From Candidatus Altiarchaeota archaeon (GTDB taxonomy: Archaea; Altiarchaeota; Altiarchaeia; IMC4; SCGC-AAA252-I15), in NCBI GenBank assembly GCA_043800255.1, contig JAZDNF010000013.1:1-64000 (forward strand): a stretch of DNA of 64,000 nucleotides, in the 5' to 3' direction. Shown here piece after piece: positions 8,240 to 13,875 of the stretch (position 1 is the first letter of the stretch; each line of letters begins with the position of its first letter). The notes beneath the pieces are model-generated. The model saw only the letters and a list, made by a program, of their open reading frames with translations, did not search any database and was not told where the DNA came from. The position numbers and the translations under genes are program-made.

Positions 8240-8998
8240 CTAGAATAATTCCACGTTGAGGTTAAAAAACCGGGTTGCATTAGCTGTTGTGATGTCCGCA
8301 ACCGAGGATATTCTGGTCTTTTTCAGCTCTGCGACGACCTCAGCAGCCTTCCCCACGTTGAGGGGGGTGTTCCGTTCACCTCGTATAGGCGAAAGGTAGG
8401 GAGCGTCGGTCTCAAGCACCATGTGCTCTAGGGGTAGTTCAGCAGCAAGCCTCTGTTTTGCCTTAGAGTATGAGATGCTGGTTGGGATGGAGATCAGGCA
8501 GGACAATTCTACGGCCCTCAATGCCTGCTCCAGGCTTCCCGAAAAACAATGCATGAGAGCGCTGCAGCCGGCTTCCTCCAGTATGTTGAGAGCATCCTCC
8601 TCGGCGTCTCTTGAATGGACTATCAACGGCAGCTTTTCCCTGATGCTGTAGTTGACAAAATCTTCGAACATTTTTCTCTGGGCTGACCTCTTGGCTTCGT
8701 CCTTGATCCAGTAGTAGTCTAAACCGACTTCTCCGATACCTGCAAGGTCGGATTTGTGTCTCTTGAGTAATGAGATAAGTTTTGAAAAATCGTCACCTGT
8801 CGCAGTGCTGGGGTTCAAGCCTGCTGTCAGATGCAGGTTATCATGCTCCCCTACCAGGTTGATGCCAGCCGCTATCTCATCAGGGGAGGTTGCGGAGATT
8901 ATTACGTTAATCCCCTTTCGCTGGCATTCCAAGACGATCTCAAGCCTGTCCGCATCAAACTCTGAGGACATGAGATGCGCGTGCACGTCAAACAGCAT
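8240..8998 (-). CDS. TatD family hydrolase
   Basis: DVHAHL, IGEVGLDY, VHSRDA, HCFSG, ETDAPYL. Confidence 0.92.
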   Translation of the reverse strand: MLFDVHAHLMSSEFDADRLEIVLECQRKGINVIISATSPDEIAAGINLVGEHDNLHLTAGLNPSTATGDDFSKLISLLKRHKSDLAGIGEVGLDYYWIKDEAKRSAQRKMFEDFVNYSIREKLPLIVHSRDAEEDALNILEEAGCSALMHCFSGSLEQALRAVELSCLISIPTSISYSKAKQRLAAELPLEHMVLETDAPYLSPIRGERNTPLNVGKAAEVVAELKKTRISSVADITTANATRFFNLNVELF

Positions 8999-9740
8999 CT
9001 TCCACCCTGATTTCGTCGCCGGCTTTAACATTAAGAAGTTCGGAAGCGCTTCCCATGTTGAGGATTATCTCAAGTAGGCCGTGGCTTCCTCTTATGATGC
9101 CCAAGCCGTCTCCGACTTCGCTGAATGTGCCGACTGCGGTTGCCTTAAAAGTCTTACCGCCAACCATGAGGTTGACCCTCCGTCCGGGACGCAGGTCATG
9201 CTCCATGTTGACGACGACGTTGCCGAAAGAGTCGACATAGAGTACAGTGCCCTCATCAACTTCCAGCTGCACAATCGGATTGGTTCTTCTGCAGAATCTT
9301 GTTAAGTCAACGCCGTCGTCGATGAGCGCAGCCGCGGGAGCGAAGACGTCTCTCCCGTGGAAGGTTCTTGAGATTTCGCCCATTTTTATCTGGCCTCTCA
9401 AGCGTTTCACGTCTATTTCATAGAATTCGGGGTTTTTCAAATCCTTCAACGCCATGCTGAAGAGGCCGTTGTCAGGTCCGACGAAACTGCAGTATCCTGT
9501 TCTGACTATTATTGGCTTCCTCTCTGTCCCAACACCGGGGTCGACGACGCCTATGTGGATTGTTCCCTCCGGAAAATGCTTCCATATTTTCGACAGTATG
9601 AATGCCCCCTCAAGGATGTTATGCCGTCGTATGTTGTGTCTGACGTCGACAACCTTCGCATCAGGGTTTATGGAATAGATTATGCCCTTCAACTCCGCAA
9701 CATAATAGTCGTTCCCGAAGTCAGTGGTTAAGGTTATCAT
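8988..9740 (-). CDS. SAM hydroxide adenosyltransferase (DUF62, chlorinase/fluorinase family)
   Basis: ITLTTDFG, VVDPGVGTER, GPDNG, TFHGRDVFAP, YVDSFGN. Confidence 0.92.
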   Translation of the reverse strand: MITLTTDFGNDYYVAELKGIIYSINPDAKVVDVRHNIRRHNILEGAFILSKIWKHFPEGTIHIGVVDPGVGTERKPIIVRTGYCSFVGPDNGLFSMALKDLKNPEFYEIDVKRLRGQIKMGEISRTFHGRDVFAPAAALIDDGVDLTRFCRRTNPIVQLEVDEGTVLYVDSFGNVVVNMEHDLRPGRRVNLMVGGKTFKATAVGTFSEVGDGLGIIRGSHGLLEIILNMGSASELLNVKAGDEIRVEDAV

Positions 9741-10428: not shown

Positions 10429-10902
10429 TCAGTTGCCGAACATCGACGCGAACGAGTCGGCAGCCTCCTCTGAGCTGCCATCGGAGTAGCCCGTATCCGC
10501 TGATTCGTATGTGCTGCAGGTGTCATCCGCTCCGCCTCCCTTCTGCCTGAGAACCTTGTCTATCTTCTGGTTTATCCTTCTGGTGTTCTTCTCTATCTCC
10601 CTCAGCAGCTCTATCAGGGTTTCCATCGAGTTCGTGAACATCAGGTCTCGGGCGGTTCTGTCAGAGGCAGCGTACTCTGAAAAGGTTATGTCAGTCATCG
10701 CGAAATCCTCTGGAGTGGCCTGCTGGAGGTTCTCGTACAGTTCCAGGATCCTTTTTCTCTCGCCTTCGATTATGACTGCAAGGCGGCCGTGGCCTGCGCC
10801 TATCACGTTGCCCTCGAGGTTGTGCGTGTGTATCTCCTCCTGGACGCGCGCCCTAAGCCATGAGCTTTCGTCGCCTAGGACGTAGAATCTCGCTGTGACC
10901 AT
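10429..10902 (-). CDS. Acylphosphatase-like domain + coiled coil + acidic tail
   Basis: Pattern resembles AcyP (ARFYVLG...LEGNV...VIIEGE) but lacks VQGVGFR and the WVRN Asn. Confidence 0.55.
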   Translation of the reverse strand: MVTARFYVLGDESSWLRARVQEEIHTHNLEGNVIGAGHGRLAVIIEGERKRILELYENLQQATPEDFAMTDITFSEYAASDRTARDLMFTNSMETLIELLREIEKNTRRINQKIDKVLRQKGGGADDTCSTYESADTGYSDGSSEEAADSFASMFGN

Positions 10903-12188
10903 AGTCTAATATTGCTCCTGAAATCATTTAAAGCTTCTTTCGACTTTAGAGGCTGTTTCTCGGCCGTTATTCTCGCATACGTCTCCTCGTCAAGCAGGTT
11001 CCTGAAGTCTGCTTTCAGCCTGCCTGCTGCATTCTCCAGCGCCTTGTAGGAGTCTGAACCGTATTTCAGGTAGCAGAGTATCCCATCATAGGATTTAGCA
11101 TGCGCTTTCAGGTATTTTTCAATCCGCTCTGATGTCACCTCGACGTATCTCTCCTTTATCTCATCTGTCTCGAGCCTCTCATCCCAGTCGTAGCTGTTGA
11201 ACGGATAATAGTCCTCAAACTCTCTTGGGATGACGCCAGCATTGCTCAGCATCACCTCATGGAATCTGTTTCTTGTTCCTGTCTCCTCCAGCACGCCTAT
11301 GATGTTCCTGTGCGTCTCAGACTGCGAGTAGGGCTTCTTGTAGGAGCACGGCAGCAGCAGCAGGCTTCTCCCTTCAGGCGGCCTGTACCATCTGGCAAGA
11401 TAGTCCTGCCACACTTCAAAATGGGGATGTAGCAGGTATTCTTCCCCGACGCCTTTGAGGCTCTGCCTGAGCCGCTTCGGAAACCGGGGTATGAAGTTGA
11501 AAGTCTCGGCGTCAAACTCTATCTTTTGGCTGTCCTTCCACTGTGAAGTCACCTCATAGAATTCGTCTCTCGTAAGATAGTTCCATTCGCCGTCAACCCA
11601 CATGCTGAATAGTTCAGCGTCGGCGTGAGGCAGCAAGTTTATGAGGACTATCGAATCAGAGCGCCTTAGGGCGTAGTCCACGGACTCTTTGAGCTTCTTC
11701 TTCCAGTCCTTCTGGAAGGGAAGGTTAACGAGCAGGTAAGTCCTCAGTTTGAATCCGTGCTTGTGGACTTTTTCGGCGGCGCGCTCGTAGTCTTCGCGTG
11801 TGAATCCCTTGTTGATTTTCTTCAGCAGCGTGTCGTCCGACGTCTCCAACCCTATGGCGACGGTCAGGTTAACGCCTTTGAAATTTGACAGATTCTCTTT
11901 TGTCAGGTATTCCGGTCGGGACTCCACGATAACATCGTCCAACTTGCTCCTCCTGCAGTTTGAGGCGACGTAAAGTCTTGCGTCCCTGCTGAACTGCCTG
12001 TCGTCGAAGAAGCTCCCGGAGCAGAAGACTTTTACAGCCTTTGCGTCAAGCTCTCTGAAAAAATTGTCGAATATGCCCTTCAGGCTGTCAGCAGGCTTAA
12101 CGTCGCACGCGATTTTCCCGTACCCGCAAAAGAAGCAGCCTTTCCACTCGCACACGCCGGAGTTCAGTATCAGCATCTTATACTGCAT
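10875..12188 (-). CDS. Fusion of archaeosine-synthesis radical SAM enzyme (RaSEA-like) with the ArcS catalytic (DUF5591) domain
   Basis: N-term CEWKGCFFCGY, SGSFFD, VESRPEY, AIGLET, INKGF; C-term PCSYKKPYSQSETH matches the ArcS PCx3KPYx2Sx2H motif, followed by GVIPREFE..YP. Confidence 0.82.
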   Translation of the reverse strand: MQYKMLILNSGVCEWKGCFFCGYGKIACDVKPADSLKGIFDNFFRELDAKAVKVFCSGSFFDDRQFSRDARLYVASNCRRSKLDDVIVESRPEYLTKENLSNFKGVNLTVAIGLETSDDTLLKKINKGFTREDYERAAEKVHKHGFKLRTYLLVNLPFQKDWKKKLKESVDYALRRSDSIVLINLLPHADAELFSMWVDGEWNYLTRDEFYEVTSQWKDSQKIEFDAETFNFIPRFPKRLRQSLKGVGEEYLLHPHFEVWQDYLARWYRPPEGRSLLLLPCSYKKPYSQSETHRNIIGVLEETGTRNRFHEVMLSNAGVIPREFEDYYPFNSYDWDERLETDEIKERYVEVTSERIEKYLKAHAKSYDGILCYLKYGSDSYKALENAAGRLKADFRNLLDEETYARITAEKQPLKSKEALNDFRSNIRLWSQRDSTS

Positions 12189-12195
12189 CGTCCGT

Positions 12196-13875
12196 CTACT
12201 TTTCCTCTCTCATTTTCTTCAGCTCATCCTTGATCTGGCTTATCTCCTCGTCCTCTCTCTTCGTCCTGATCTTCTTGGCAGCTCCTTGGGATATGCTCAG
12301 CTGCGGCCCGCCGAGAATCTTCTTCCGCACGTCTATCAGATTCTGCTCTTGCAGTTTCTTAACCCACTCTTCAACCTTCCTCGTCTCGACCCTCAGCTCC
12401 TTCGCAGCGTCTTTCACGCTCATGGACCCTGACCGTGCGACAAGCTTCAGGAGGTCATTCGGGCCTTTCTCCTGTCTCATGGTCTGCCTTTTAAGTTCCT
12501 CCCTCAGCCTATCCTCCTCAAGCCTCTTCCGCTCCTCCCCCTCCAGTATCGTCTTCTCCCTGATCTCGTCCAGCCTGATCTTTTCAGCTTGCAGGTTTCG
12601 TGTCGCGTTAACGTCCCCGGCCTTGGTTTTGATGGCAGGAGCCGGGCTCTGTTTAGGCTCGTCTTTTTTTGGCGGGGCCTTTTTCACAGGCTTGGACGCC
12701 TCCTCCAGGAAAGAGGATATCATCCCATCATCGTCATCTTTCAGTATATTGTCTTCCGGTGGCTGAGTTTCTGTAACCGTCTGCTTTGAGGTTTCTTCTA
12801 CAACAGCCTCGGAGATGTCAGCCTTCTCCGGTTCAGGCAACGCTGCCCCCGACGGCTCATCCTTTCCTGAGTCGTCTCCAAGCAACCCTGCCTCAGGCGT
12901 AGGCTGACCTGCAGCCCCACCAAACTCGGCTTCAGATATTTTCGCGCTTTCAGCTTCGACCAGCTTCCTGAGCTCCTGCTCCCTCTTCCTTAATTCCTCG
13001 CTCTCTCTTCTGAACACTTCCTCAAGGTGCCTGCTCTCCTCCAGGATTTCCCTCGCCTCTGCCTTTAGCTTCTCTTCCCTGCCGTCAAGCTCCTTCTTCT
13101 CGTCCAAAAGTTTTTTCTTTAGCCTTTTCAGTGTTTCAGAGTCACCGCCGGCATCTGATGTTCCCTCCTCCTCGAAAAAGAGGGTCATCTCCTCCTCAGC
13201 GTCTGCCATCTGCCGGCGTTGCTTTTCCAGTTCGCCCTCGAGTTTGCCTATCGTGACGTCCTTCTCCTTCATCTCCTCCTGTTTTTTTGTTGAGAGTTCC
13301 TGTTCGTGCCTGAGCAGGTCCTCGGCCTTATCCCGCCTTTCCTTCTCAGCTATAAGCTGGTCTCGTAGGTTCTCAAGTTCTGGTTTGTCGCCTGTTTCGT
13401 CTCTTATCTTCTTTTCAACGCTTTTCAGTTTCCTCTCGACTTCAAGCCGCTTCTTCCGCTCGTCCTCCGGCTTATCCGCAACCTCTGCCTTCTTCAGCTG
13501 CTTCCCAACACCCTCCTTTACCGCCCCCGGACCTGTCTCTTTCGACTGAATCTTCTTCCTGACGAACTCCCTAAGTTTGGAGGTTGCTGATATGTTGGGG
13601 TCAGGGCTTAGTGGATCGTCTATCGCTATGAGATCCTTGGACTCGTAGAATTTCACCAGCTTAAGGACCTCAAGTTTGTCAACGTTCAACTCCTTCATGA
13701 TCTCGCTGACGCTGGTCTCAGGCTTGCGTATTACAAATCTCAGGAACTCCTTAGGCGTTTCCCTTTTTACCTTCTTCCCTATCTTTTCTTTGAACTGGTT
13801 GAGGAAACCACGCCGCTCCTCCTCCCTCTCCCGAAGAGCCCTCCACTCAAACCTCTTGCCCTCATCAGCAGCCAT
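12196..13875 (-). CDS. Charged coiled-coil protein with two winged-helix-like domains
   Basis: SVSEIMKELNVDKLEVLKLVKFYESKDLI and SVKDAAKELRVETRKVEEWVKKLQEQNLI flank long E/K-rich helices and a disordered linker. Confidence 0.7.
   Translation of the reverse strand: MAADEGKRFEWRALREREEERRGFLNQFKEKIGKKVKRETPKEFLRFVIRKPETSVSEIMKELNVDKLEVLKLVKFYESKDLIAIDDPLSPDPNISATSKLREFVRKKIQSKETGPGAVKEGVGKQLKKAEVADKPEDERKKRLEVERKLKSVEKKIRDETGDKPELENLRDQLIAEKERRDKAEDLLRHEQELSTKKQEEMKEKDVTIGKLEGELEKQRRQMADAEEEMTLFFEEEGTSDAGGDSETLKRLKKKLLDEKKELDGREEKLKAEAREILEESRHLEEVFRRESEELRKREQELRKLVEAESAKISEAEFGGAAGQPTPEAGLLGDDSGKDEPSGAALPEPEKADISEAVVEETSKQTVTETQPPEDNILKDDDDGMISSFLEEASKPVKKAPPKKDEPKQSPAPAIKTKAGDVNATRNLQAEKIRLDEIREKTILEGEERKRLEEDRLREELKRQTMRQEKGPNDLLKLVARSGSMSVKDAAKELRVETRKVEEWVKKLQEQNLIDVRKKILGGPQLSISQGAAKKIRTKREDEEISQIKDELKKMREEK

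Follow-up and report, generated by a model that had tools for sequence, protein, structure and literature searches.

A fusion of a RaSEA-type radical SAM core with ArcS C1 is a candidate single-chain archaeosine synthase of Altiarchaeota

Archaeosine (G+), found at position 15 of tRNA, is a modification characteristic of archaea, and the last step of its synthesis is known in several solutions: ArcS with RaSEA, QueF-like and Gat-QueC. Here we describe a gene in a 64,000-nucleotide stretch of DNA from a Candidatus Altiarchaeota archaeon (assembly GCA_043800255.1, contig JAZDNF010000013.1, positions 1 to 64,000), referred to below as the window. Its product, which we call the fusion, combines a radical S-adenosylmethionine (SAM) domain of the RaSEA type with the C1 domain of ArcS (Pfam DUF5591) in one polypeptide, and is probably an archaeosine synthase.

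One reading frame spans both domains

The gene lies on the reverse strand and encodes 437 amino acids (Table 1). An initial annotation, made from the sequence of the window, had described it as a single uninterrupted open reading frame (ORF), and the ORF listing of the window agrees, with no internal stop in the 437 codons. An alternative ATG stands at codon 5; the database copy of the protein (P0001) has 433 amino acids and the ESM Atlas copy begins at residue 5, and translation may start at either M1 or M5. The upstream gene ends with a stop codon 7 nucleotides before the ATG of the fusion.

Conservation was assessed in an alignment (A1) of 34 fusion homologs with 50-59% identity. Within the short segment that joins the RaSEA- and ArcS-homologous parts, T229 is invariant in this alignment and the conservation of D226, E228 and F230 reaches 90% or more; F232, the first residue beyond the segment, is invariant too. 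An assembled contig from a public groundwater metagenome spans positions 11112-12098, and with them the domain junction at about 11411-11519, over 987 nucleotides with 28 substitutions and no gaps; a second assembled contig spans 11739-12414 (676 nucleotides), also without gaps. A stop or frameshift at the junction had been raised as a possible refutation of the fusion, and the contig that crosses it shows substitutions only; no insertion or deletion is listed for either contig over the gene. These contigs are not independent evidence, because the sequencing runs behind them may be, or may share a study with, the source of the window itself.

Table 1. Features of the fusion gene and its product, with positions in the window
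Feature	Residues	Positions	Strand	Basis
Whole ORF, RaSEA-core/ArcS-C1 fusion	437 amino acids plus stop codon, ATG start	10875..12188	-	ORF list, two-domain hidden Markov model matches, AlphaFold2 model
RaSEA-type radical SAM core, partial TIM barrel	2-223	11520..12185	-	hhalign, TIGR01210, Foldseek
C13-x4-C18-x2-C21, predicted [4Fe-4S]/SAM cluster motif	13-21	12126..12152	-	Invariant in 34/34 homologs
Junction between RaSEA- and ArcS-homologous parts, conserved ETFxF segment	224-231	11496..11519	-	Between the ends of the two hhalign matches
ArcS C1/DUF5591 domain	232-376	11061..11495	-	hhalign, Pfam DUF5591, PDB 2q07
PCSYKKPYSQSETH, ArcS C1 signature PC-x3-KPY-x2-S-x2-H	280-293	11310..11351	-	Read from translation
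C-terminal tail, conserved, mostly helical, neither C2 nor PUA	377-437	10878..11060	-	No Pfam or NCBIfam domain; AlphaFold2 helices

The N-terminal half resembles the core of RaSEA

The best NCBIfam family for the N-terminal half is RaSEA (TIGR01210), which matches residues 5-159 with 119.4 bits (E = 1.8e-34) and leads by 75 bits over the next family, MnmL/YtqA at 44.4 bits; Elp3 scores 34.4 bits. Pfam Radical_SAM (PF04055) covers residues 13-162 with 48.4 bits against a cut-off of 29.5. When the 34 fusions were compared by hhalign with 28 canonical RaSEAs, fusion residues 2-223 aligned with RaSEA residues 33-263 (probability 100, E = 6.4e-47), and the first ~30 and last ~80 residues of RaSEA had no counterpart in the fusion. 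The canonical set, taken from the representative search described below, consists of proteins of ~330-370 amino acids that all match TIGR01210 at E <= 1e-10; one example scores 357.6 bits. Thus, the assignment of this half to RaSEA, made at first from motifs, is supported by both kinds of profile comparison. The motifs themselves, CEWKGCFFCGY (13-23), SGSFFD (57-62), ESRPE (89-93), IGLET (112-116) and INKGF (125-129), are all found in the translation as they had been quoted.

The three cluster cysteines are invariant among the 34 homologs, as are the elements GSGSF, ESRPE, GLE and KG. The pattern Cx4Cx2CG occurs in 77 of the 80 related loci that we read from a wider scan (see below); of the three loci without it, two are truncated by the end of a contig, and L102 has V in place of G after Cx4Cx2C. 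The initial annotation called this cluster motif compressed. The description holds against 27 of the 28 canonical RaSEAs, in which a regular expression finds 7-9 residues between the first two cysteines, but not as a general one, since the 28th (P0176) aligns as Cx4 and the cluster motif of Elp3 is also Cx4Cx2C.

The C-terminal half carries the ArcS C1 domain

Pfam DUF5591 (PF17884) matches residues 260-395 with 71.8 bits against a cut-off of 26, and the ORF contains exactly two Pfam domains, this one and Radical_SAM. In an hhalign comparison with six full-length ArcS-type proteins, residues 232-376 of the fusion aligned with residues 233-372 of the 555 in ArcS (probability 99.65, 41% identity), so that the C-terminal assignment, too, stands up to profile searches. 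PMC10516641 describes C1 as the catalytic core, carrying the motif PC-x3-KPY-x2-S-x2-H; the exact motif reported earlier for the fusion is present as PCSYKKPYSQSETH. It occurs in strict form in 34 of 34 aligned homologs and in 70 of the 80 related loci, and C281, K285, P286, Y287, S290 and H293 are invariant in the alignment. Motif conservation in both halves is far beyond chance.

The NCBIfam ArcS model NF040592 matches fusion residues 235-389 at model positions 256-403 of 575. The Pfam scan gave no PF01702/TGT match, and the match to the ArcS model starts only at position 256; nor did the scan give a match to PF14810 or PF01472, for C2 and PUA, and the ArcS match ends at position 403. The earlier statement that the protein has no TGT-like or PUA domain therefore agrees with the Pfam and NCBIfam scans of the ORF, which likewise found no C2. 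The minimal architecture proposed on that basis holds for the ArcS half; that the RaSEA half is trimmed as well had been left out. The C-terminal tail is predicted by AlphaFold2 to form helices at residues 379-390, 401-407 and 417-436, and positions within it, such as S380, A383 and N397-L399, are conserved among fusions.

Predicted structure

An AlphaFold2 model computed from alignment A1 has a mean predicted local distance difference test score of 92.8 and a predicted template modeling score of 0.88, and presents the fusion as one confidently packed two-domain body. Foldseek searches of the PDB with the modeled N-terminal half returned Elp3 (8pty_C, E = 9.6e-8) and other radical SAM enzymes as top matches; the C-terminal half matched AF0587 (2q07, E = 4.9e-6, 175 columns). 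The same entry was found by sequence search of the PDB, at 6.5e-7 over residues 267-336, and no solved RaSEA structure was found by that search at E <= 1.

The archaeosine pathway of the source genome

The source genome (G000) comprises 1.75 Mb in 17 contigs and is 93% complete; the window is from contig 14. Its single TGT-family gene, on contig 5, is an arcTGT of 563 amino acids that includes a PUA domain and scores 500.7 bits with TIGR00432, whose cut-off is 350. No DpdA-type transglycosylase was found in the genome, where the DpdA model reaches 27.9 bits against a cut-off of 200. The genes queD, queC and queE form one cluster on contig 8. The 254-residue QueC ORF matches only QueC and adenine-nucleotide-hydrolase-type families in NCBIfam, and no glutamine amidotransferase family; the genome has no match to the QueF family.

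The fusion ORF is the only DUF5591 locus of the genome and the sole good match among its RaSEA-like loci, the two others scoring 42.8 and 33.2 bits. A genome search found nothing over the cut-off for canonical ArcS, and the RaSEA search found no canonical RaSEA. The combination proposed as a check in the initial annotation, arcTGT without a separate ArcS or RaSEA, is thus what the genome contains. Because the other known G+ synthases were not found in this inventory, the fusion is the only candidate for the step from preQ0 (7-cyano-7-deazaguanine) to G+. A14-G15 is present in 33 of 36 tRNA predictions made with ARAGORN when a one-base register shift is allowed.

The window itself contains no tRNA genes. 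Across the whole genome, ARAGORN predicts 6 tRNA genes without an intron search and 36 with one; about 30 of the 36 have an intron of 23-113 nucleotides, mostly after position 37-43, and a few carry implausibly long 'introns' of 216-1102 nucleotides. Intron-containing tRNA genes appear to be unusually numerous in this genome.

The fusion is common in uncultured archaea

We surveyed 61 genomes, including this one, that are assigned to Altiarchaeota by their record titles; related genomes among them are not independent observations. A strong match to the fusion (E <= 1e-80), in homologs of ~430 amino acids, is present in 48 of them. DUF5591 occurs in the same 48 genomes at one locus each, which is the fusion ORF, except for two contig-end pieces in G020. 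No genome of the phylum has a TIGR01210 match over the cut-off (0/61); at E <= 1e-15 the model matches in 46, always inside a fusion ORF. An arcTGT is found in 50 genomes (47 over cut-off) and QueC at E <= 1e-20 in 44. Fusion and arcTGT occur together in 46 genomes, the fusion without arcTGT in 2, arcTGT without the fusion in 4 and neither in 9, and the presence of the fusion thus tracks arcTGT across the phylum. The nine genomes with neither are G032 (91% complete) and all eight members of one family (f9), in which QueC is not found either, a pattern that is probably a single loss of the whole pathway. G032 does have a QueC match. In two genomes from the same family as G032 (G050 and G051, 90-92% complete), arcTGT and the fusion are present without QueC, which suggests preQ0 salvage.

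A word-indexed protein search returned 302 matches, of which the best 120 are all 365-464 amino acids long, 50-59% identical and carry PF17884, 118 of them with PF04055 as well. Most are named 'DUF5591 domain-containing protein [Candidatus Altiarchaeota]', and some JGI entries bear the name 'archaeosine synthase'. An exhaustive search of representative proteins gave 1525 matches at E <= 0.001 and 30 at <= 1e-30; among them are 11 full-length fusions (P0122-P0128, P0131-P0134) with 36-47% identity. In the ESM Atlas the fusion forms two clusters, of 93 and 75 members.

Relatives are also encoded in 109 stretches found in a scan of species-representative genomes. We read the loci of 80 of the 109, and all 80 hold fusion ORFs or pieces of them truncated by the contig. 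Beyond Altiarchaeota, the titles of these 80 include Iainarchaeota, Micrarchaeota, Aenigmatarchaeota, Nanohaloarchaeota, Nanoarchaeota/Parvarchaeota, Desulfurococcales, Thermofilaceae and Culexmicrobium; the carriers outside the phylum are metagenome-assembled genomes, including some labeled Thermoproteota. An arcTGT match was found in 5/5 fusion-bearing genomes from outside the phylum, over the cut-off in 4, and in one such genome arcTGT lies ~850 nucleotides from the fusion on the opposite strand. The survey that the initial annotation had called for thus finds the fusion in 48 of 61 genomes of the phylum and in several other archaeal groups, continuous in the relatives; it is real and common in uncultured archaea. 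In two Thermoproteota-labeled genomes (G064 and G065, reached via L097 and L090), an arcTGT ORF of 537-538 amino acids also exceeds the DUF5591 cut-off, besides a separate fusion gene.

Phylogeny and other architectures

A tree of N-terminal domains was built from 36 fusions, 22 RaSEAs, 3 proteins of other architecture and 4 Elp3 sequences (231 columns) in a quick IQ-TREE run, with the Shimodaira-Hasegawa-like approximate likelihood ratio test (SH-aLRT) as its only support measure. Fusions and RaSEAs are separated from Elp3 by a branch with an SH-aLRT value of 100; the N-terminal domain groups with RaSEA and not, as had been raised as a possible refutation, with another radical SAM family. Canonical RaSEAs form a single clade (support 100) whose stem is long (1.39). 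In a tree of C-terminal domains (64 rows, 205 columns), the C1 domains of canonical ArcS likewise stand on a long stem (support 95) and most stand-alone DUF5591 proteins belong to one of two clades with long stems; the C-terminal domains of the fusions form a short-branched bush.

As drawn with Elp3 as root, the N-terminal tree shows the fusions as a grade within which canonical RaSEA is nested, which would suggest that the fused form is ancestral. The arrangement was rejected as evidence for this: a tree constrained to hold all fusion N-terminal domains and P0148 together as one clade has a log-likelihood 7.4 higher, with a p value of 0.66 in the approximately unbiased test. On these values the fusion N-terminal domains can be read as the sister group of canonical RaSEA, a relation at least as good as the grade, and we make no claim as to which form is older.

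Other architectures were seen among the relatives. Two proteins have the reverse domain order: P0166 (497 amino acids) reads DUF5591(part)-TGT_C2-PUA-Radical_SAM, that is, C1-C2-PUA-RaSEA, and P0153 (680 amino acids) has a DUF5591-like region followed by a RaSEA with a Cx3Cx2C motif and a Cys-rich tail. Both nest inside canonical RaSEA in the tree, which indicates that the two enzymes have fused more than once, independently. P0121 (635 amino acids) is a fusion homolog with a ~200-residue insertion between the radical SAM and DUF5591 domains. P0148 (544 amino acids) has a 310-residue uncharacterized N-terminal region and then a radical SAM domain with the fusion-type Cx4Cx2C motif, without DUF5591.

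Genomic neighborhood

The fusion belongs to a tightly packed array of same-strand genes, in the order tatD, SAM hydroxide adenosyltransferase, hisA, a 157-residue ORF without a family match, the fusion and a 559-residue ORF. The last of these (12196-13875, reverse strand) lies directly upstream of the fusion and encodes a lysine- and glutamate-rich protein with no Pfam family; it has look-alike 'KEL-V-...-LI-V/ID' segments near both ends, and these might bind DNA. The SAM hydroxide adenosyltransferase (SAM_HAT_N and SAM_HAT_C; 8988-9740, reverse strand) is three genes downstream, and its place in the same array as a radical SAM protein is probably coincidental. No functional link between the fusion and its neighbors was seen.

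Proposed function and alternatives

In Euryarchaeota, ArcS transfers lysine to preQ0 at position 15 and RaSEA turns the resulting preQ0-Lys into G+; the two co-purify as an obligate complex, and ArcS alone is reported to be inactive (PMC11298593). The chemistry of this obligate complex lies in C1 and the radical SAM core, and a fusion of those two parts would preserve just such a complex; on this ground we assign the same two-step route to the fusion. ArcTGT, encoded elsewhere in the genome, would place preQ0 at G15 of tRNA. The C-terminal ArcS-C1/DUF5591 domain would then attach lysine at the nitrile of preQ0 to form preQ0-Lys, and the N-terminal domain, with SAM and a [4Fe-4S] cluster on C13, C18 and C21, would cleave this adduct to leave the formamidine group of G+. 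The covalent link would stand in for the non-covalent euryarchaeal complex, and the TGT-like, C2 and PUA modules of ArcS, together with the N-terminal extension and Cys-rich tail of RaSEA, would be dispensed with. According to PMC11298593, ArcS also accepts the 5'-monophosphate of the preQ0 nucleoside, and it follows that the L shape of tRNA is not required and that tRNA-binding domains are not essential for the chemistry.

Taken together, we consider it likely that the fusion acts as a single-chain archaeosine synthase, and those checks proposed in the initial annotation that were run agree with its reading. Seen directly are the architecture, the homology of both halves, the conserved catalytic-type residues, the co-occurrence with arcTGT and the finding of no other known G+ synthase; the confident two-domain model and the independent reverse-order fusions also speak for the assignment. 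The two chemical steps, the lysine donor, the tRNA substrate and the G+ product we infer.

Several observations weigh against this assignment. Neither half reaches the curated cut-off for its full-length family: the N-terminal half scores 119.4 bits at model positions 17-182 of 313, against an equivalog cut-off of 212.15 bits for TIGR01210, and the C-terminal half scores 72.5 and 62.6 bits with the ArcS models NF040592 and NF053620, against 440 or 600. The shortfall arises because each half is only part of the canonical protein, and both halves are trimmed, divergent forms. A conserved HNCxxC...CxC tail pattern is present in 26 of the 28 canonical RaSEAs and in none of the 34 fusions; this tail is a RaSEA feature as observed in our alignment, with no published definition. 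If the tail has a second metal site that catalysis requires, the chemistry of the fusion could differ. The long stems that set canonical RaSEA and ArcS C1 apart from the fusions in the two trees also mean that function could have drifted between them. Across the phylum, the fusion is present without arcTGT in G046 and G013 (67% and 77% complete) and arcTGT without a detected fusion in G034, G036, G045 and G006 (70-87% complete). A literature search found no activity data for any member of the fusion family. In addition, the stand-alone DUF5591 protein ArcS2 of phage nt-1 is reported to give some deoxyarchaeosine (dG+) in E. coli without RaSEA (PMC10516641, Table 3), from which it follows that C1 may not strictly need a radical SAM partner.

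A bolder version of the proposal is possible but doubtful. In it, the fusion would be a self-sufficient minimal archaeosine synthase, a RaSEA core without the Cys-rich tail joined to a C1 domain without a tRNA-binding module, which would recognize preQ0 essentially at the nucleotide level. The fused form would be the prevailing and possibly the older one in DPANN and part of TACK, and canonical ArcS and RaSEA would be elaborated, faster-evolving derivatives.

The ArcS2 result also bears on the first alternative, that C1/DUF5591 uses ammonia, glutamine or asparagine to produce G+, or some other amidine, in a direct reaction, with the radical SAM domain serving a structural or activating role or catalyzing some other radical reaction on a 7-deazaguanine. 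Besides dG+ formation in a host without RaSEA and the missing Cys-rich tail, this explanation can draw on the ArcS of M. jannaschii, reported to use NH4+, Asn or Gln; the ArcS of three euryarchaea described in the same paper, however, used none of them (PMC11298593). A purely structural N-terminal domain is unlikely, since such a domain should not keep its cluster cysteines, yet these and the SAM-binding-type motifs are invariant in the 34 homologs and kept in 78/78 related loci that include the N-terminus. The closest family of the domain is, moreover, RaSEA itself, and we regard direct amidation as improbable.

Still less probable is that the fusion acts on DNA, a free base or a nucleotide instead of tRNA, in the manner of viral DpdA/ArcS2. 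Such a substrate would explain why PUA, C2 and TGT-like domains were not found, and it would fit both the stand-alone DUF5591 proteins, which are reported to work with DpdA on DNA (PMC10516641), and the use of preQ0 nucleoside monophosphate by ArcS in vitro (PMC11298593). Against it, the only TGT-family gene of the genome is an arcTGT with a PUA domain that exceeds its equivalog cut-off, while the DpdA model falls far short of its own (27.9 against 200 bits). The fusion gene also sits among housekeeping genes such as hisA and tatD, not in a defense or mobile context, and it is single-copy and vertically conserved in 48 of 61 genomes of the phylum, where it tracks arcTGT. An artefact of assembly or gene calling, or a decaying gene, is effectively refuted already: the assembly is in 17 contigs and 93% complete and no RNA run is among the listed public sequencing runs, but the same continuous ORF recurs in those 48 genomes and has relatives in the 109 species-representative stretches, its catalytic-type residues are invariant across homologs, and metagenome contigs traverse the junction with substitutions only.

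Novelty and significance

If the fusion is a single-chain archaeosine synthase, it would show which parts of ArcS and RaSEA serve the chemistry and which serve only tRNA handling or complex formation. At 437 residues and with a confidently modeled rigid two-domain body, it would lend itself well to solving the structure, still missing, of the active sites for lysine transfer and radical cleavage. It would also allow annotators to account for the 'missing ArcS' of DPANN and some TACK genomes, in which the gene mostly goes by 'DUF5591 domain-containing protein' or 'radical SAM protein' at present.

A full-text literature search, which excluded the primary 2019 RaSEA and 2010/2012 ArcS papers and supplements, found no description of a RaSEA-ArcS fusion, and its novelty is provisional. 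According to the initial annotation, the architecture is not known to have been characterized. That search indeed found no experiment or paper on it, but databases already label some members automatically as 'archaeosine synthase'. The fusion had also been presented as a Rosetta stone that defines the minimal machinery. The fusion is real, but its value in this respect is limited, since the obligate ArcS-RaSEA complex was already reported (PMC11298593); because the partnership and its chemistry are established, the gain is incremental rather than conceptual, and the fusion confirms the link.

Comparison with known systems

The closest known system is the ArcS-RaSEA enzyme of Euryarchaeota, in which the alpha subunit is the lysine transferase and the beta subunit the radical SAM preQ0-Lys lyase (PMC11298593 and PMC7694415, citing Yokogawa et al. 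2019). Both catalytic modules are homologous to those of the fusion, and the arcTGT and queCDE context is the same. The fusion differs in being one chain, without the TGT-like N-terminal, C2 and PUA domains of ArcS and without the N-terminal extension and CxxC...CxC tail of RaSEA. Its cluster motif is Cx4Cx2C, whereas that of canonical RaSEA is mostly Cx7-9Cx2C, and both halves lie outside the canonical long-stem clades and below the curated cut-offs, with a single clade of fusion N-terminal domains not rejected.

C1-only proteins occur in some archaea and viruses (PMC10516641). Like the fusion, these stand-alone DUF5591 proteins (viral ArcS2 and the archaeal C1-only forms) have C1 without the N-terminal, C2 and PUA domains, and the closest are 34-46% identical over the domain. 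They differ in having no fused radical SAM domain, and the viral forms act on DNA with DpdA, whereas the only TGT-family gene of the genome described here is arcTGT. The only solved structure that we found to match the C-terminal half of the fusion is PDB 2q07, deposited without an assigned function; its protein, AF0587 of Archaeoglobus fulgidus, has 306 amino acids and no radical SAM domain.

Elp3 and MnmL/YtqA (TIGR01211 and TIGR01212) belong to the same radical SAM subgroup as the N-terminal half. Elp3 is its best solved structural match and shares the Cx4Cx2C motif, but the two families score only 34.4 and 44.4 bits against 119.4 for RaSEA, and a separate, full-length Elp3 (768 bits) is encoded in the genome. 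QueF-like and Gat-QueC, finally, are the non-homologous G+ synthases of Crenarchaeota (PMC5699537, PMC10516641). They fill the slot proposed here for the fusion, from preQ0-tRNA to G+-tRNA, with folds and chemistry unrelated to it.

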